13,216 nt of DNA, from assembly GCA_029856365.1 (NCBI GenBank), contig JAHQWW010000108.1, forward strand, positions 1 through 13,216, given 5' to 3'. A model generated the notes under the pieces. It saw only the letters and a list, made by a program, of their open reading frames with translations. It was not told where the DNA came from and searched no databases. The translations under genes were made by a program, and so were the position numbers. Positions within the stretch are counted from its first letter, which is position 1. Each line of letters starts with the position of its first letter. Of the stretch, positions 1 through 8,400 are shown one piece after another. Source of the DNA: Candidatus Hodarchaeota archaeon (lineage in GTDB: Archaea > Asgardarchaeota > Heimdallarchaeia > Hodarchaeales > Hodarchaeaceae).

Positions 1-2
1 GA

Positions 3-3000
3 AACACCACCAAAGGTGAGAAGTGGTATTTCACGGTTCAAGCATATGATGGGGAAGGCCTATCTACCATTATATCCCTAGCTGAAAACGTCACAATTCT
101 GAATACAGCCCCTTTGGCGAGTAACCTGACTCTCACAGCTAATCCCACCACTCTTGATGATTTGGTTGCAGCTTGGGACTACTTTGACATTGATAATGAC
201 CTCAGAGATGATGCTTTGGCACAGATTTATTGGTTCAAAAATGGTGAGAATCAAACTGCTTTGGCTAATCAAAAAGCTATTGGGTTCACCAATACCTCCA
301 AGAATCAGGTCTGGTGGTTTACCGTTCGTGTATCTGATGGTCAAGACTATTCTGGGCTTTATGAGTCAGCTCACATCCAGATTCTGAATAGTATTCCTGT
401 GGTCGAAAACTTGACAATTAGTATTTCAAATCCCAAGACGACAGATAAGTTAGTTGCACAGTGGGATGATAATGATAATGATAGCGACATCTTAAGCTAT
501 ACAATTAAATGGTATATCATGGGTGTGGGATTACAATCCGCCTATTCCGATTTAACAGCCGTTCCTGCCAGTGCTACTTCAAAGGGAGAGATTTGGTATT
601 ATACTCTGAAAGCGTTTGATGGGAGCGACTACTCCTCTGAAGAGACCCTTAGTCCTGGTGTACTCATCCTCAATACTGTTCCCATTGTTGAAGACTTTGC
701 TTTAACCCTGGATCCTCAAACAGCAAATGACCTCGTGGCTAGTTGGGATGCTGCTGATAATGATACTAGTGATACATTAACCTTCAATATCACATGGTAT
801 TTAGATGGGGAAATGAATTGCAGCTGGTTTACATCGGCGAGTAGTGCGATACTGGATGCAGGAAACACCACCAAAGGGGAGAAGTGGTATTTCACGGTCC
901 AAGCTTATGATGGAGAAGGGGTGTCCAGTATTATATCCCTAGCAGCGAATGTCACCATTCTAAACACCGCCCCAACGGCGAGTAACTTAATTATTACGTC
1001 CAATCCCACCACTCTTGATGACTTAACTGCGGATTGGGATTACTTCGATATTGACAATGATCTCAGAGATGACACATCAGCCCGGATTACTTGGTTCAAG
1101 AATGGGTTGAATCAAACCGTCTTGGCCAATCAGAAAGTCGTTGGAGCCACCAATACCTCTAAGAATCAGGTTTGGTGGTTCACAGTCCAAGTATTTGATG
1201 GGGAGAACTATTCGATAGGGATCTACGAGTCTGCCCACATTTCCATTCAGAACACAGTCCCCTATAGTTCCTCCGCTCTTCCCCTTCCCATGGATCCTAC
1301 GAAAGCGAATGGATTAGTGTTGAGTCTTCCTGCAATACTGTCTGTATTCTCGGACCCAGATCCGAGCGATGATCTCGAAGTGGTGCAAATTTGCTGGTAT
1401 AAAGAAGGTATTTTACAGGGAACGTTAAATGACTCGTTAATTGTACCTGGTACCCGCTTAACCAAAGGAGAGACGTGGAACTATTCGATTGTGCCTTTCG
1501 ATGGGGTTGACTATGGGGCGGTCTGTGTTTCTACTGAAATAGTCATCTTAAACTCGAAGCCAACGATTATCAACACCTATTTCATAGAAACAACCGTTAC
1601 TACCATTAGCGATCTCGTGATCAGCTTTCAAGCTGAGGATGCCGATGGAGATAATATTACCGTCTCAGGGGTGCACTGGTATCGATGGGAATTTCCAATT
1701 TGGGAGTACAATGCTACTTATGATGATTATGTGAGTCTCCCCGCTTCTGCCACCACCAAAGGAGAGAGCTGGAAATTTGAGCTTGCGGTCTCTGATGATA
1801 CAGATCAATCGGTATGGAGAGAGGCCGCGAAAGAGGCGGATATTATCAATAGTAGACCTCGCATTGATCCCTTTAGTATCACTCTGACGGGGGGCACCAC
1901 CACCTCGGATCCTTTACAGGTGAATTATACGTGGTCTGATGATGATCCTGGGGATAGTAATACCCAGACGATTATTACCTGGGAGAATAGTGGCGACTAT
2001 TTAGAGGATACTTATAGCACCACTTTGTCTGCAGAAAACACCACCGCGGGTGAACGGTGGTGGGTGACGATCACTCCGTATGATGGTGAGGCAGAGGGCG
2101 ACTCTGTCAACAGTAAACGGTATGGGATAAGTATTATTATTGGCAACACCCCTCCCAGTCTCGCGCCCGAGGACATCGAGATTAAGGGAGAGTTAAATGA
2201 GACAGAATATCAGGGGACGAGTTTTGGGACGGTATTCAATCTCAACCTTCACTACTCTGCGTCCGATCTGGATGGTGACCAGGGGGTTCCTGCGTATGAC
2301 TTATCTATCGTTGATGGGTTTGCCGTGGGCTCTGAATATCGGTGGTATCGAAATCGATCAGGAACAGTTATCAGTATTTCAGCTTTGAATGATAAAACAA
2401 CTGTCCCATTTTACTATACGCAAAAAGGGGATATTTGGTGGGTGCATGTGCGCCCCCGAGACTTTTATGGGGATTTTGGGGCGCCTCAAAATTCTTCACA
2501 GATTATCATTGGAAATACCGCGCCTCAAATAGTTGAATTACACTGGGTACGTCTTACCTATTATACCACCAACAACTTGGTGTTTGGTTATACGTTCTAT
2601 GACTACGATACCAAGGATACCCAACAGGGAGCATTTATCCGCTGGTATCGGAATGGCACTTATGTACCAGGCTTCGATAACACTACTGCAATTGCCTCTC
2701 AATTTACTAGAAAAGGGGAGGCATGGTATGCGAATATTAGTGTCTTTGATGGCGAATCCTATAGTACTTGGTATTATTTACTCAATATTACGATCCAGAA
2801 TTCTCCCCCGACTGTAACAAGTATTTTGTTGACCCCTATTTTTCCCAACACCACCCAACCTCTGATTACAACCTGGGCCTTTGTCGATGCCGATAATGAT
2901 TCCGAAAATCAAATTGAGGCGCTCATTCAATGGTACCGTAATGGGATCCTTGTAAACAGTCTTACGAATCACTCTAATGTTCCTTTTGAGTTGACTAACC

Positions 3001-3671
3001 GAGGGGAAAGCTGGTACTTCACGGTGCAAGTTACTGACGGGTATAATTACTCCATAATCGTTTATATGTCGAATGCCATTACCATTATTAACTCAGCGCC
3101 GACCGCGTTTGATCTTCAGATCAACCAGGGGGCCCTTAGTATCTATACAACTGACAGTCTAGCTCTGACCTGGAACTTTACAGATCCAGACGTTTTTGAT
3201 ATTGAGGATACATCCTCTGCTTTAATCCTTTGGTATTTGAATGGCATTGAGCAGTCAGCGTTCACAAATGCCACGGAGATTCCCGCCACGTATGTGATGA
3301 AAGGGCAACAGTGGATAGTTTCGATCAAAGTCTGTGATAATGGGGGGCTATGGAGTGAGTTCCTGAATTCGTCTCTTATGGTGATCAAGAACTCTGTTCC
3401 CACAATTACCATTCATGGAACTGCCCATCCTGAATTTATCATTGAGGATGAAGCGTTAGAAATTAACAGTAGCTTTTATAGCTATAACGATGAAGATGGG
3501 GACGAGAATCAACCAGTGATCGTGTGGTATTGTAATAATGAATTGATGCACCAAAACATCTGGGTTCTCTTGGCCAATGATACTGTTCCAGGGGATGTCT
3601 GGTATTATACGATTCAACCCTTTGATGGTACTGATTTTGGGGTCGAATGCATCTCACCCGAAATCTATGTT
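3..3671 (+). repeat. Tandem ~95-120-aa Ig/cadherin-like (AIR9 A9-like) repeats in gene 1: 12 complete + 1 partial
   Basis: Units start at the N-x-x-P motif at 102, 387, 672, 963, 1251, 1551, 1848, 2145, 2514, 2799, 3090 and 3390. Each has an acidic DxDxD-type loop and a strand-C Trp (mostly WY/WF); most end with (T)KG-x-x-W-x-(F/Y/V)-x-(V/I)-x-x-x-DG. Confidence 0.9.
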
Positions 3672-5084
3672 GAAAGTCGACCTGTGATCCATAGTTTTGT
3701 CGCGACCGCCCTTCCTGACACTGAGGGACACTATGAATTGGAAATCAATGTTACAGATTCTTACAATGAGATCAAACAGGTGGAATTCCTCTTGAGCCTC
3801 AATACCACCACGGAACTCTCTCCTTTCATCATTACTTCCCCTAAAAGTCCTGGTTCAACTCTTTGGCTCCTCGATTATACATTAGCTACTTATTCTTATC
3901 TCGAGACCCCAATTCTTGTCACCGTGACCGTTGTGACCAAAGTCACCTATTCTATCACCTATGAAATCCAATTGATCCAGTCTTTCACCTTTACACTCGA
4001 AGATAAAGCGCCTCCGCGCGTCCTCAATGCCTATTTTGAGATGAATGATGAGCTCAATCCCACCAACTTGACCTTTTATGCTGAGGTCCAGGACTTTGGT
4101 TCGGGGGTGGCAGAAGTCATTCTCTCTTATTACTTCCGCCCGAGTGAGGAGATCAACCAGACAGGGGGGAATGGTGCCGCCCTCCTCCAAGACGACCTGG
4201 AGTGGCTGGAGGTACCCATGACAGCTCAAGTAGCCAATGAAACGGGCCAGTTCCTCCTGTATATGGTGACAGTGGACTTTGTCCATGCTACCTCCAACCT
4301 CGATATTATCTATCGCCTCTCGACCGAAGATATGGCTGGCAATAGCAATCCAGTGGCGTTTGACATTCGAGACTATCCCCAACGCATTGATGCTCAACGA
4401 TTTATCTATCAAGCCCCAGGGCTTCCTGAATGGGTTCTCCTCGTGGCTGGTTTAGCTGTGTTCGTCATCTTTGTTGGCTCCATAGTCTACGTGAAATTCA
4501 TCCGTAAACCAGAGCTTGTTGGCCTGGATAAAGAATTAGTTCTAGCCAAAGTCCCGGACATCACTGAGGCGGAGGTGTTGGCAGCACTGGATACCCATAC
4601 TATTGGCGTGATCGTCAGCTTTTTCGATCAGAGACATGGCCCGATCCCGATTATCATCATACCTGAGATTCTGAAAGACAACTTTAACAAGCTGGTGGAT
4701 CTCTCGGATCGTTCGTTTAGTGGGACTGGGTTTGCTGATGACTTTGGTGTTGAGATCCCCTCGAGTTATGACTTTGTGTTGTCCCATGGAGTTCGTACCA
4801 GTGTGATGTCCTTCGGCTTTGCCCTAGAGCGGCCTGACTCTAGAGGAGGCCAAGAGAACCTTACCTGCAATATTATTGTCCATCAAGATCTCTTTCCATT
4901 GGTTCAATCTTTCCAGAAAGAGCTTCAACGTAAAGTCCACTCTCTTCATGTGAGAATGGACAAGAACCCCTCGGAAAAAGCCAAGATCCGCAAACAAGTT
5001 TTTGAGCTTAGGAAATTCGTGTCTAATATTATATTATCCTATACGAGCATTTATGGCACCACTGAATTACTAGAAGAAGACTAA
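3..5084 (+). CDS. Giant single-pass membrane protein, 5'-truncated: Ig/cadherin-like repeat stalk + TM helix + cytoplasmic uDENN/longin-like domain
   Basis: The frame of the track ORF 114..5084 is open from position 3 (NTTKGEKWYFTVQAYDGEGLSTIISLAENVTILNTAPL...). The TTG at 114 is therefore an internal Leu and the true start lies upstream of the window. Stop TAA at 5082-5084; at least 1693 aa. Repeats with N-x-x-P, DxDxD, WY/F-x-N/D-G, T-x-KG-x-x-W and (Y/F/S)DG motifs; hydrophobic WVLLVAGLAVFVIFVGSIVYV followed by KFIRK. Confidence 0.95.
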   Translation, partial: NTTKGEKWYFTVQAYDGEGLSTIISLAENVTILNTAPLASNLTLTANPTTLDDLVAAWDYFDIDNDLRDDALAQIYWFKNGENQTALANQKAIGFTNTSKNQVWWFTVRVSDGQDYSGLYESAHIQILNSIPVVENLTISISNPKTTDKLVAQWDDNDNDSDILSYTIKWYIMGVGLQSAYSDLTAVPASATSKGEIWYYTLKAFDGSDYSSEETLSPGVLILNTVPIVEDFALTLDPQTANDLVASWDAADNDTSDTLTFNITWYLDGEMNCSWFTSASSAILDAGNTTKGEKWYFTVQAYDGEGVSSIISLAANVTILNTAPTASNLIITSNPTTLDDLTADWDYFDIDNDLRDDTSARITWFKNGLNQTVLANQKVVGATNTSKNQVWWFTVQVFDGENYSIGIYESAHISIQNTVPYSSSALPLPMDPTKANGLVLSLPAILSVFSDPDPSDDLEVVQICWYKEGILQGTLNDSLIVPGTRLTKGETWNYSIVPFDGVDYGAVCVSTEIVILNSKPTIINTYFIETTVTTISDLVISFQAEDADGDNITVSGVHWYRWEFPIWEYNATYDDYVSLPASATTKGESWKFELAVSDDTDQSVWREAAKEADIINSRPRIDPFSITLTGGTTTSDPLQVNYTWSDDDPGDSNTQTIITWENSGDYLEDTYSTTLSAENTTAGERWWVTITPYDGEAEGDSVNSKRYGISIIIGNTPPSLAPEDIEIKGELNETEYQGTSFGTVFNLNLHYSASDLDGDQGVPAYDLSIVDGFAVGSEYRWYRNRSGTVISISALNDKTTVPFYYTQKGDIWWVHVRPRDFYGDFGAPQNSSQIIIGNTAPQIVELHWVRLTYYTTNNLVFGYTFYDYDTKDTQQGAFIRWYRNGTYVPGFDNTTAIASQFTRKGEAWYANISVFDGESYSTWYYLLNITIQNSPPTVTSILLTPIFPNTTQPLITTWAFVDADNDSENQIEALIQWYRNGILVNSLTNHSNVPFELTNRGESWYFTVQVTDGYNYSIIVYMSNAITIINSAPTAFDLQINQGALSIYTTDSLALTWNFTDPDVFDIEDTSSALILWYLNGIEQSAFTNATEIPATYVMKGQQWIVSIKVCDNGGLWSEFLNSSLMVIKNSVPTITIHGTAHPEFIIEDEALEINSSFYSYNDEDGDENQPVIVWYCNNELMHQNIWVLLANDTVPGDVWYYTIQPFDGTDFGVECISPEIYVESRPVIHSFVATALPDTEGHYELEINVTDSYNEIKQVEFLLSLNTTTELSPFIITSPKSPGSTLWLLDYTLATYSYLETPILVTVTVVTKVTYSITYEIQLIQSFTFTLEDKAPPRVLNAYFEMNDELNPTNLTFYAEVQDFGSGVAEVILSYYFRPSEEINQTGGNGAALLQDDLEWLEVPMTAQVANETGQFLLYMVTVDFVHATSNLDIIYRLSTEDMAGNSNPVAFDIRDYPQRIDAQRFIYQAPGLPEWVLLVAGLAVFVIFVGSIVYVKFIRKPELVGLDKELVLAKVPDITEAEVLAALDTHTIGVIVSFFDQRHGPIPIIIIPEILKDNFNKLVDLSDRSFSGTGFADDFGVEIPSSYDFVLSHGVRTSVMSFGFALERPDSRGGQENLTCNIIVHQDLFPLVQSFQKELQRKVHSLHVRMDKNPSEKAKIRKQVFELRKFVSNIILSYTSIYGTTELLEED
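3672..4430 (+). other. Two membrane-proximal beta-sandwich (Ig-like) domains of gene 1
   Basis: ESRPVIHSF... (3672) and DKAPPRV...AEVQDFGSGVAEV...TEDMAGNS (4002 onward). The D-x-x-PP / D-x-x-SGV / D-x-AGN pattern is typical of prokaryotic Ig-like domains. Confidence 0.6.
4431..4493 (+). other. Transmembrane helix of gene 1
   Basis: 21 uncharged, mostly hydrophobic residues WVLLVAGLAVFVIFVGSIVYV followed by K-F-I-R-K. The positive-inside rule places the C-terminus in the cytoplasm. Confidence 0.9.
4596..5081 (+). other. Cytoplasmic uDENN/longin-like domain
   Basis: beta1-turn-beta2 motif IGVIVSFFDQRHGPIPIII (4602 onward), helix NKLVDLSDRSF, strand-loop-strand VMSFGFALERPDSRGGQENLTCNIIV (4803 onward), then amphipathic helices. 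This resembles the F-D/H-x-x-x-G-P and x-R-G signatures of uDENN/longin domains in folliculin/SMCR8, NPRL2, Avl9/Afi1 and DENND6-type proteins. Confidence 0.7.
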
Positions 5085-5128
5085 GTACGTATGTATATAT
5101 CAAACTACTATTATTGATTGTTATCAGA

Positions 5129-5168
5129 TAGAATAATCCAAAAGGAGGGATTATCTAGAATTTTTCTT
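5129..5168 (+). terminator. Possible terminator of gene 1 (weak hairpin + oligo-T)
   Basis: ATAATCC (5133-5139) pairs with GGATTAT (5148-5154), extendable by TAG/CTA with a 1-nt bulge, followed by TTTTTCTT at 5161-5168. The stem is AT-rich, so support is weak. Confidence 0.3.
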
Positions 5169-5379
5169 AAACTCTTAATCCAAAAATATCGCAGCTTGAT
5201 TGACATATTGATCCAATGTGTAAAAATATCCCTTGCAATCAATCTGGTAAATTTCGCTGGATATGATCATACTAGATGAGTTTCCAAAGCTGAGCGTGAA
5301 TACTAAGTGAAATTATCTTAGTTCAGGAAAATGAATTCCGATCCTTACCTATCTATCAATTTGAATAGTCTAAGGGTTT

Positions 5380-5385
5380 AGGAGA
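5380..5385 (+). promoter_or_regulatory. Shine-Dalgarno-like site for gene 2
   Basis: AGGAGA ends 9 nt upstream of the ATG at 5395. Confidence 0.55.
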
Positions 5386-5394
5386 AGAAAATTA

Positions 5395-5478
5395 ATGAAA
5401 TATCACAAAAAAAATCTTATATCTATTTTTTTTCTTCTTATTTTTATAACTAATATTCTTATAATACTTACCCCCGTT
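5395..5478 (+). other. N-terminal signal peptide / signal anchor of gene 2
   Basis: Basic N-region MKYHKK followed by the hydrophobic stretch LISIFFLLIFITNILIILTPV. No obvious A-x-A cleavage site. Confidence 0.75.
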
Positions 5479-8400
5479 CAACGTGAAGGTTTTTTTGACT
5501 CCAATGGATTCATGGTAGAGCTATTAAAGGGATTTGGATTTATTAGGGAGAGAAAGGAGACTTATCATGATGTACCTCGCCTTTTGGGCACAAATTCTCA
5601 TTCTAATAACACTGATCGTTTTGGAATTCGTGCTGCAACTCAATCAGAGAACTATGTTCCTGGTTGGGCTGATAGTAGATGGAAATTTCGCAAAAATATC
5701 ACTATTGACTATTCTAAAGTTAGTGCTGATTTAACTAATTTTCCTGTACTTATTAATGTCTTCGATAGTGATCTTCAAAGCGACGCTCAAGCCAATGGTA
5801 ACGATATTATGTTTTCTGATGCTTCAGGAAACATCTTAGATAATGAAATAGAATTATATAATAGAATATACAACTCTACTCATGCTCATTTAGTAGCCTG
5901 GGTTAAAGTTAATCTTTCTAGCACCCAAGACACAATGATTTCCATGTATTTTGGCAATCCTACTACTTCTAATCAAGAAAATGTAAATGATGTTTGGGGC
6001 GACAATTATGTAGGAGTTTGGCATCTAACAGAGAGTGGTACTGGAACTCTTAATGAATTTAAAGATAGTAGTCAATATAATAACCATGGACAGGGAGGAG
6101 AGGGGAACTCTTCTTTTGTTCCTACCAAAGTGGGGGGAAAAATAGGTTATGGTCAGGATTTCAACAATTTAGATGGGAAATATGATTTAATTGACTGTGG
6201 CAACGATTCAAGCTTCAATATAACAGGATATTCTATTACCTTAGAAGCCTGGATACACCATAATATTACTCCTCAATCCGTTTTTTATGGAATCATGAAT
6301 CATAAAGGTTGGTATGATGGATATAGTTTATGGATAGAACAAGATTCATTAAAACTCGCATTTAATTTACCTGGAGAGACACATAAATTACTGAGTGCAG
6401 CAGATATCACCACAAATACATGGCATCACATTGTTGCAACGTATGATGGTGCATGGATGAGGATTTACATTGATGGAGTACAGGATCTAAATACTTTAGC
6501 CAAAAGTGATAGTATTGAACCCTCATCCTCTGAACAGGATTTTTGGATTGGTCACGGGGATCAACCGAAAGATAAAGGTTGGAGCGCTGAATGGGATGGA
6601 CAAATCGATGAAGTTCGCATTTCTAACATCACTCACAATTCAGATTGGATCAAAACTGAATATGAGAACCAAAATGATCCACAATCTTTCTATTCTGTTG
6701 GTACAAAACAAAACTATGAAAATTATAATTGGGCATTCCCAATGTTAAACAATCGAAAAAAGATTGTAATAAATGCTAATAAAGTCAGTTCTGACTTAAC
6801 AGATTTCGCTTTACTCATTGATTTATATGATACCGATTTGCACAATACTGAGAAAGTCCAAGCTGATGGTGATGATATTCTCTTTACCGATGTTTCTGGT
6901 ACCAAGTTAAATCATGAAATAGAATCCTTTGATCAGAACTCTAATTCAAGTCATGCTCATTTATTGGCATGGGTTGAAATTCCAAATCTTTCAAAAACAG
7001 AAGACACATCAATTTTCATGTATTATGGAAATGATGAAGTTAGTTCTCTAGAGAATCCTTCTGCTGTGTGGAATAACAATTACATAGGTGTATGGCATTT
7101 AAGTGAGACGAACGGACCCGTTTATGACTCAACCTCACATGGATATGATGGTTTGGTTACAGGGGCATCATATAGTTCTCCTTCCTTCATAGATGGTGGA
7201 TATGAATTTATCAGGTCAGAAACAGACTTAATAGAGATGCCTGAAACTGCCAATGCCCTTCAATTAACAGATTTTACTGTTGAGGCTTGGATAAAAACTC
7301 CAGACTCAACTGTACCAGATGATTACTATATTGTTACGCAAAGTCTATATAGTGCTACTACTTCATGGGCCCTTAATATAGCTGATGATTCGGGGCATGA
7401 AAACGAGGCTAGATTTACAACAAGAGTAGCCAGTCAACAAATTGTATATTCGAATTTTCCAGTTACTGGTAATGAATGGCATCATCTTGTTGGAGTAAGA
7501 AATTCTACATCGCTTCTCATTTATGTGGATGGTTCGTTAGCTGGTTCAGAAACTGATAACGAGGCAGGCCAGACTCTCCAATCACCTGTAAATGTTTCAA
7601 TTGGTTCAGCTATTAATACTAGTTCAGAAGATTTTAATGGTATTATTGATGAAGTTCGGATTTCTAATATTGCCCGTTCTGCAGCTTGGCTTGAAACACA
7701 GTATAACAATCAATTTGACCCTAATAGTTTCTACTCGGTTGAAATGGAAGAGTACTCACCTATTGAAGATGATTGGGCATTTCCACAGTTTAACTATAGA
7801 AAACCTATTACAATAAAGTCTGATCAGGTGAGTGCTGATCTAACTAATTTTCCAGTTCTCCTTAACATCACTGATCCTGACCTTCATGATAATGGAAAAG
7901 TCCAAGTTGATGGTGATGATATTCTTTTCACAGATAACTTAGGAACCAAACTTGATCATGAAATTGAACTCTTCGATCAGACCGGGAACGGTAGCCATGC
8001 ACATTTGGTCGCTTGGGTGAGGGTGCCAAATCTATTGTCAACTTATAACACCAATATTACCATGTACTATGGAAATGATGTTGTTGATTCCCAAGAGTAT
8101 CATCAGGGCGTTTGGGATACAAATTATGTTGGAGTGTGGCATATGAATCAAAATCCTCCTCTGATCGAAGATAGTACCTCCCCAAATAGTGATGGGACTA
8201 CTTATGGATCAATGACTTCCGCAGATCAGATAACAGGACAAATAGATGGCTCACTTGATTTTGATGCTACAGATGACTATGTAGATTGCGGAGATCCAAC
8301 TGAACTGCAAATAACAGGCGCAATGACAGTCGAAGCTTGGTTGTATGCTGATTTTGTTGGTAATGACTACCTAGTTGGAAGAAACGGTCCAACGAATGAA

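Follow-up and report, generated by a model that had tools for sequence, protein, structure and literature searches.

Analysis of a 13,216 bp stretch of Candidatus Hodarchaeota archaeon DNA (assembly GCA_029856365.1, contig JAHQWW010000108.1, positions 1 to 13,216 of the forward strand; hereafter the window) revealed an open reading frame (ORF) that is the C-terminal 1693 amino acids of a type I single-pass giant surface protein. The cytoplasmic tail of this protein has the high-confidence predicted fold of a longin (uDENN) domain, for which the nearest class, on the structural model, is that of folliculin (FLCN), NPRL, SMCR8-C9orf72 and Lst4. The ORF runs from 3 bp to 5084 bp on the + strand and its 5′-end is open at the contig start; in the genome assembly (G000; 4.24 Mb, 84% complete) the window corresponds to contig C135. 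An earlier note on this DNA, made from the sequence alone, had described a giant adhesin fused through one transmembrane helix to a uDENN/longin-like domain, and had suggested that an arginine in the tail may be the catalytic finger of a GTPase-activating protein (GAP). The structural half of that interpretation, covering the fold, the motifs and the homology, was borne out; the functional half, a receptor with a GAP finger, is treated below as a conditional claim.

Translation of the ORF together with a hydropathy scan confirmed the single transmembrane helix, the KFIRK sequence that follows it and a tail of the length noted earlier (~196 aa). Only at the helix, WVLLVAGLAVFVIFVGSIVYV, did a 19-aa segment of the ORF reach a mean Kyte-Doolittle hydropathy of at least 1.8. 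The tail comprised 196 aa (4494 bp-5081 bp), and the two strings that the earlier note had quoted from it, IGVIVSFFDQRHGPIP and FGFALERPDSRGGQENLTCNIIV, were both found in its translation. There were 42 N-x-S/T sequons before the helix, equal to 2.85 per 100 aa, compared with 0.5 per 100 aa after it. This contrast and the basic residues that follow the helix are consistent with an N-out/C-in topology, and the surface protein is probably N-glycosylated. In the juxtamembrane linker, the motif KPELVGLDKELV was kept among paralogs, and DSSP applied to the tail model placed two helices at residues 13-18 and 25-35 (H13-18 and H25-35).

The tail was modelled with AlphaFold2 using a 33-sequence alignment of the tail family (A1). 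The model had a mean predicted local distance difference test score (pLDDT) of 92.9 and a predicted template modelling score (pTM) of 0.88, and it followed the β-β-α-β-β-β-α-α order of longins. Its elements were β1 (tail residues 36-45), β2 (49-56), α1 (58-78), β3 (88-95), β4 (101-112) and β5 (120-130), followed by C-terminal helices at residues 131-138, 141-157 and 162-187. As the stop codon comes 9 residues after the last helix (residue 187), the tail is a longin-only protein end that lacks a DENN module. Structure comparison of the model gave a score of 13.6 with 8yqg, the longin of a Lokiarchaeota Roadblock-Longin protein, 12.7 with 8dhb_J from the active FLCN GAP complex and 11.8 with the folliculin chains 6nzd_H and 6ulg_L. 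The folliculin chains superposed on the tail with a root-mean-square deviation (rmsd) of 2.6-2.7 Å over 135-140 residues, at 17-18% identity. Scores of 10.2-11.5 were obtained with GATOR1 entries, 10.6-11.4 with C9orf72-SMCR8 entries and 11.3 with the Lst4 longin, compared with about 9 for the DENND1 uDENN and 7-8 for TRAPP, AP5 sigma, VAMP7 and Sec22b. GAP-type longins exceeded generic longins by 2-5 Z units. The longin-like character that had been read from the letters was therefore upheld by the model and the fold search, with the GAP-type class nearest. PAS, LOV and GAF chains scored at most 6.8; an identity of this kind was considered for the tail and rejected, as the matches ranked lower and superposed poorly.

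Residue conservation was counted over 122 tail-family domains, and both the F-x4-GP and the RG loop of the earlier note proved near-invariant. The glycine and proline at the start of β2 were kept in 122/122 (G49) and 119/122 (P50) of the domains. The arginine of SRGG, confirmed at the codon given for it (AGA), is R117 of the tail and was kept in 119/122. Around it, P114 was retained in 113/122, G118 and G119 in 108/122 each, E121 in 117/122 and N122 in 113/122; D72, F75 and S76 were also strongly conserved across the family. Human FLCN starts with MNAIVALCHFCELHGP and has the same F-x4-HGP spacing (F10-x4-G15-P16), and its residues 159-168 read KDSLARGFQR, including R164; both were checked in PDB 6ulg_L. 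The equivalent loop arginine of NPRL2 is R78. The best alignment of the tail-family profile to FLCN residues 115-186 set R117 on R164, at a non-significant E value of 0.13. By its place in the sequence, V-R-S-L-S at FLCN residues 126-130 may correspond to L-S-D-R-S-F-S of the tail.

The arginine fingers SMCR8 R147 and FLCN R164 sit in the βL4-βL5 loop (cryo-EM preprint 10.1101/2020.04.16.045708). R117 was located in the β4-β5 loop of the tail model, in keeping with the placement suggested earlier, and by loop position and sequence alignment it is a candidate for the site at which the FLCN and SMCR8 fingers lie. A GP at the start of β2 together with a loop arginine finger has been described as the mark of GAP longins (Traffic 2025, PMC12290439). 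According to the same survey, the GP is found in FLCN, NPRL2, SMCR8 and C9orf72 and not in FNIP2, NPRL3, TRAPP, adaptin or DENND longins, and one class of soluble Asgard longins likewise has both GP and Arg (PMC12290439).

Homology to folliculin-type proteins was traced through a soluble 443-aa protein of the same genome (G000:C9:52650-53981; L009:625-1956, - strand) that has GP and ARG motifs. This protein passed the cut-off of Pfam Folliculin (PF11704) with a match that spans β4, the Arg loop and β5, and the family of Asgard PF11704 proteins to which it belongs (A2) had an invariant G26-P27 and R94. An hhalign comparison of the tail family (A1) with A2 showed 88% probability and an E value of 2.8e-6, with GP aligned on GP and R117 on R94. 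BLASTP of the tail against the C9 protein gave the same register (E 3e-4), and the hidden Markov model (HMM) of the tail recovered the C9 protein (E 3e-6) when run over the ORFs of the whole genome. Folliculin was the only Pfam family matched by several members of the tail family (4/33, best E 3.6e-4), and two paralog tails matched it below its cut-off. Profile-profile homology with matching motifs argues for common descent rather than fold-level likeness, and the descent of the tail from the same longin class as the PF11704 proteins is well supported by these sequence comparisons. When searched against PDB sequences, the profile of the Asgard PF11704 family did not reach folliculin. Two further features of the C9 locus were observed: residues 247-300 of the protein had a weak sequence match to BBS5 (PDB 6xtb, E 0.0025), and the gene is closely preceded, on the same strand, by a roadblock-like ORF of 164 aa.

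The tail recurred at the end of ~10 further giant ORFs in the same genome, as well as in one stand-alone 186-aa copy, and an exhaustive HMMER search of 1.84 billion protein representatives returned 147 clusters (50% identity) that contain it; recurrence on this scale shows that it is not a chance sequence. In nearly all of these clusters the domain was at the extreme C-terminus, in proteins of up to 5809 aa. A transmembrane helix was present just upstream of the domain in 114 of the 132 assessable members, and 10/132 were soluble. For the 119 members in which the match extends as far as the model end, the domain ended at most 20 residues from the C-terminus. When distribution was scored over 399 genomes of the phylum, the domain was found in 19 of the 21 genomes of the host genus, with up to 8 scored copies per genome, in 21/31 and 8/12 genomes of two other families of the same class, in 1/2 genomes of a further family within the same order and in 2 genomes that do not belong to the class. 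The family is thus centred on a single genus within one Asgard class. All source names seen for its members were 'hypothetical protein', and close homologues of the genome's proteins were labelled Hodarchaeales, Heimdallarchaeota, Kariarchaeaceae or Promethearchaeota, which places the host among Asgard archaea of the Heimdall/Hodarchaeales type.

Several variants of the tail architecture were observed. P0048, P0066 and P0078 are soluble proteins of ~280-350 aa; instead of the ectodomain and transmembrane helix, they have a zinc-ribbon-like C-P-I-C-G motif at the N-terminus and, probably, a coiled coil, and none of the three had a Pfam match. The stand-alone 186-aa paralog (G000:C49:5473-6030, + strand), one of the few exceptions to the conserved motifs, keeps the GP and has SPDNKDS instead of the Arg loop, and the same protein (P0132) was present on several contigs elsewhere. 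By analogy with C9orf72, FNIP or NPRL3, this Arg-less paralog is a candidate non-catalytic longin partner. Three tandem tail-bearing genes, encoding 997, 1556 and >2971 aa, were found at G000:C52:8552-25091 (- strand). The 997-aa gene has a divergent tail with a GRGQG loop and with EGVSS instead of GP, and two of the C52 tails matched Pfam Folliculin weakly (E ~0.01). Tandem tail genes recurred in relatives (L020, L024 and L029), with giants of up to 10,431 aa among this divergent group.

The small GTPases that the earlier interpretation called for are present in the host genome, which had 59 Pfam Ras matches, 10 Roadblock/LC7 matches and several strong matches each to Gtr1/RagA and Arf. Genes of the Gtr1/RagA family (Pfam E 1e-30 to 1e-39) directly adjoined tail genes in L017, L022, L027 and L030, out of 20 loci taken from four related genomes. 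The flanking Gtr1/RagA genes were of a ~300-aa form with a roadblock-like C-terminus and a ~740-aa form; those at L027 encode 740 aa and 322 aa and that at L030 encodes 302 aa, and in the host genome two Rag-like proteins, of 300 aa and 737 aa, are encoded on C12. Across other genomes of the host genus, 17 of 51 tail genes had a Gtr1/RagA gene at most ~250 bp away, in at least three arrangements: convergent with a ~750-aa gene, with a ~300-aa gene on the same strand immediately downstream or upstream, and divergent. As there are only 2-10 strong Gtr1/RagA matches per genome, this adjacency is far from chance. In a quick FastTree phylogeny, which is indicative only, Rag-adjacent genes fell on both sides of the clade of the window gene. 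A search of the remaining short contigs with tail genes found no GTPase gene.

Two Rag-like loci had additional features. At G000:C136:6209-12912, a 312-aa Rag-like gene (- strand) is arranged head-to-head with a giant gene (7624-12912, + strand) at a distance of ~480 bp, and a 1030-aa ORF lies downstream of the Rag-like gene. The giant gene is 3′-open and belongs to the same ectodomain family as the ORF of the window, and its tail must be on another contig. The larger Rag-like protein (L027:5861-8080 and homologs, ~730-760 aa) has its Gtr1/RagA GTPase domain at residues 18-188, and the ~550 residues that follow, which had no Pfam match, could be roadblock or longin modules.

In the best-supported reading, to which we give about even chances, the tail would bring a Rag-like (Gtr1/RagA-family) GTPase to the plasma membrane and, as a longin dimer, would speed up its hydrolysis of GTP. 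R117 would then act as the arginine finger. Clustering of the ectodomains could produce a homodimer; alternatively, the tail could pair with a different tail or with a soluble Arg-less paralog, for instance C49:5473-6030. For the tail we infer binding, catalysis, which partner it has and in which direction the signal runs; a Rag-like partner is indirectly supported by the family-level synteny with Gtr1/RagA genes. That the whole protein is an outside-in receptor, in which a ligand or cell contact at the lectin/FN3 (fibronectin type III) ectodomain clusters the tails into a dimeric, R117-dependent GAP for a Rag-like heterodimer, is a further proposal that we consider unlikely. If true, the lineage closest to eukaryotes would possess, wired to the cell surface, an archaeal forerunner of their FLCN/GATOR-Rag nutrient switch.

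A number of observations weigh against a tail with GAP activity towards a Rag-like GTPase. In eukaryotes, a GAP longin functions only when it forms a heterodimer with another longin (FNIP, NPRL3 or C9orf72), and most longins are platforms for guanine nucleotide exchange factors (GEFs) or adaptors rather than GAPs. The SMCR8 longin alone was inactive without C9orf72 (preprint 10.1101/2020.04.16.045708). The fold of the tail is a prediction, and the direct alignment of its profile to the FLCN fragment was, as given above, not significant. The window tail had no match to PF11704 at E values up to 10 and falls outside that Pfam family; Pfam and NCBIfam searches with it returned nothing meaningful, and phmmer with the tail and a search with the tail-family profile found nothing relevant among PDB sequences. 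The near-invariant E121 and N122 were not matched to any FLCN feature, and the loop may serve another role. With regard to the neighbourhood, no GTPase gene was found in the window, which is all of contig C135, or beside the 4204-aa ortholog of the window gene in another genome (G071:C1), where the nearest Arf/Rag-like gene is ~12 kb upstream. The genomes in which Rag-like neighbours were counted are related rather than independent, so that fewer independent events underlie the synteny than the count suggests.

In a rival reading, the tail is a non-catalytic longin platform, comparable to TRAPP, Mon1-Ccz1, DENN uDENN or Ragulator-type domains. Such a platform would recruit a small GTPase, Rag-like or other, or would act as a GEF or scaffold, with R117 serving binding or loop structure, and GTPase signalling would be tethered to the surface protein without GAP chemistry. 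We regard this as possible, if on the doubtful side: it is set against the lead of 2-5 Z units that GAP-type longins had over generic ones, the profile link between the tail family and Pfam Folliculin proteins, and the retention in at least 98% of members of the GP and loop Arg, which are reported to be specific to GAP longins (PMC12290439). More improbable is a tail that serves the giant protein itself, in sorting, anchoring or clustering, for example by links to the cytoskeleton, to ESCRT or vesicle machinery or to adjacent tails, and that does not regulate a GTPase cycle; it would be comparable to SNARE longins. It would leave unexplained both the near-invariant GP and Arg and the finding that a third of sister genes adjoin the scarce Gtr1/RagA genes (2-10 strong per genome), and soluble members without a transmembrane helix exist (10/132). 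That the likeness to folliculin is convergent or at the level of the fold only, and that the tail is a PAS/GAF/LOV-like α/β sandwich which binds a small ligand, is very hard to credit. Such domains superposed with a high rmsd and a low template modelling score in Foldseek and were well below the longins in the VIA ranking, and the profile-profile homology to the PF11704 family, with its matching motifs, stands against convergence. The features of the window gene on which these readings draw are listed in Table 1.

Table 1. Features of the giant surface protein gene in the window (positions in bp; tail residues are counted from the first residue after the transmembrane helix).
Feature	Position	Strand	Description
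Extracellular part	3..4430	+	~95-100-aa repeats ending I-x-N-[ST]-x-P, then a membrane-proximal non-repeat region; N-terminal portion missing
Transmembrane helix	4431-4493	+	WVLLVAGLAVFVIFVGSIVYV; residues 1477-1497
KFIRK stop-transfer (positive-inside) and juxtamembrane linker	4494-4598	+	tail residues 1-35; two short helices
Longin domain (predicted)	4599-5054	+	tail residues 36-187
GP motif	4638-4643	+	G49-P50; opens β2, within F44-x4-G-P
L-S-D-R-S-F-S motif	4701-4721	+	end of α1 (D72, S74, F75, S76)
β4-β5 loop R-P-D-S-R-G-G	4830-4850	+	candidate arginine finger R117, codon 4842-4844 (AGA)
Stop codon	5082-5084	+	longin domain ends the protein, no DENN module after

The ectodomain repeats of the window gene are FN3-like on the evidence of a model: a two-repeat AlphaFold2 model (pLDDT 79) resembled the tandem FN3 domains of neogenin, titin and Robo (Foldseek E ~1e-7) as well as those of L1CAM, a result that does not support a cadherin-like ectodomain, and the Pfam fn3 match to the ectodomain was weak. 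Because the contig begins within the gene, a signal peptide is visible only in the G071 ortholog, which is 78% identical and opens with a signal-peptide-like segment. A second giant gene, ORF2, was found at 5395 bp-13,215 bp (+ strand) and is 3′-open. It encodes a signal peptide and five DUF2341 and Laminin_G_3 (ConA-like lectin) modules, followed by FN3-like repeats as in the window gene. The modules of ORF2 are similar to residues 76-712 of the G071 ortholog. Given this resemblance to the head of the ortholog, the full protein would most likely consist of a signal peptide, lectin-type head modules, an FN3-like stalk, the transmembrane helix and the longin tail. ORF2 probably represents the head part of a further tail-bearing paralog with its 3′-end on a different contig; no nucleotide overlap was found with C147, C155, C158 or C90, nor one that would join C135 or C136 to other 5′-open tail contigs. 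From the FN3 repeats and the lectin-type modules, these proteins may reasonably be labelled putative adhesins or receptors.

Eukaryotic longin GAPs (folliculin, GATOR1 and C9orf72-SMCR8) control Rag and Arf GTPases and are linked to nutrient sensing, cancer and neurodegeneration. Their origin has been traced to Asgard archaea, so far only in the form of soluble proteins. If the tail does have GAP activity, receptor-to-small-GTPase signalling across a membrane would predate eukaryotes. If it has none, Hodarchaeales still have in this family a large, lineage-specific and unannotated class of surface proteins that carry a eukaryote-type module in the cytoplasm. Regulator-GTPase pairs are hard to predict in Asgard genomes (PMC10933270), and the tail genes beside Rag-like genes are candidate pairs that can be expressed and assayed. 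No description of a transmembrane-anchored longin family on giant surface proteins, or of its pairing with Rag-like genes, was found in the literature searched, which covered few subscription journals.

Among known systems, FLCN acts with FNIP2 (Lst7-Lst4 in yeast) as the GAP for RagC/D (Gtr2), as represented by PDB 6NZD, 6ULG and 8DHB. FLCN is part of a soluble complex that is recruited to the lysosome, whereas the tail is tethered to the plasma membrane at the end of a giant extracellular protein; the tail also lacks the DENN module and the FLCN-type Cys/His insert, and an FNIP-like partner for it was not identified. The eukaryotic substrates of NPRL2-NPRL3 (GATOR1) and SMCR8-C9orf72 are RagA/B, Arf and Rab. 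These pairs have 8-10% identity to the tail and are obligate heterodimers in large soluble complexes. The longin of 8YQG comes from a soluble roadblock-longin fusion, and PDB sequence and profile searches with the tail did not find it.

Closer comparisons are with proteins of Asgard archaea, in which FLCN-like and NPRL2-like longins, including fusions to two-component signalling domains, have been described (Liu et al., preprint 10.1101/2020.10.19.343400); 15 Asgard longins were surveyed in PMC12290439. The caution in the earlier note about novelty was justified, as soluble Asgard longins of the FLCN/SMCR8 type with GP and Arg had already been published (PMC12290439). The soluble Folliculin/SMCR8 longin proteins of Asgard archaea (PMC12290439; preprint 10.1101/2020.10.19.343400) share with the tail the aligned GP and loop Arg and come from the same organisms (Heimdall/Hodarchaeales). 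However, they are cytosolic proteins of ~430 aa that have extra C-terminal domains and pass the Pfam Folliculin cut-off, whereas the tail family forms a separate transmembrane-anchored clade with its own motifs, LSDRSFS and RGGxEN. The giant FN3-rich proteins of Nerearchaeum marumarumayae (bioRxiv 10.1101/2025.07.22.663070) have in common with the window protein many fibronectin-like domains, one membrane span and very large size, and with its G071 ortholog a signal peptide. The consulted passages of that preprint describe no cytoplasmic longin tail for them, whereas in the proteins analysed here the tail is the conserved and defining part.

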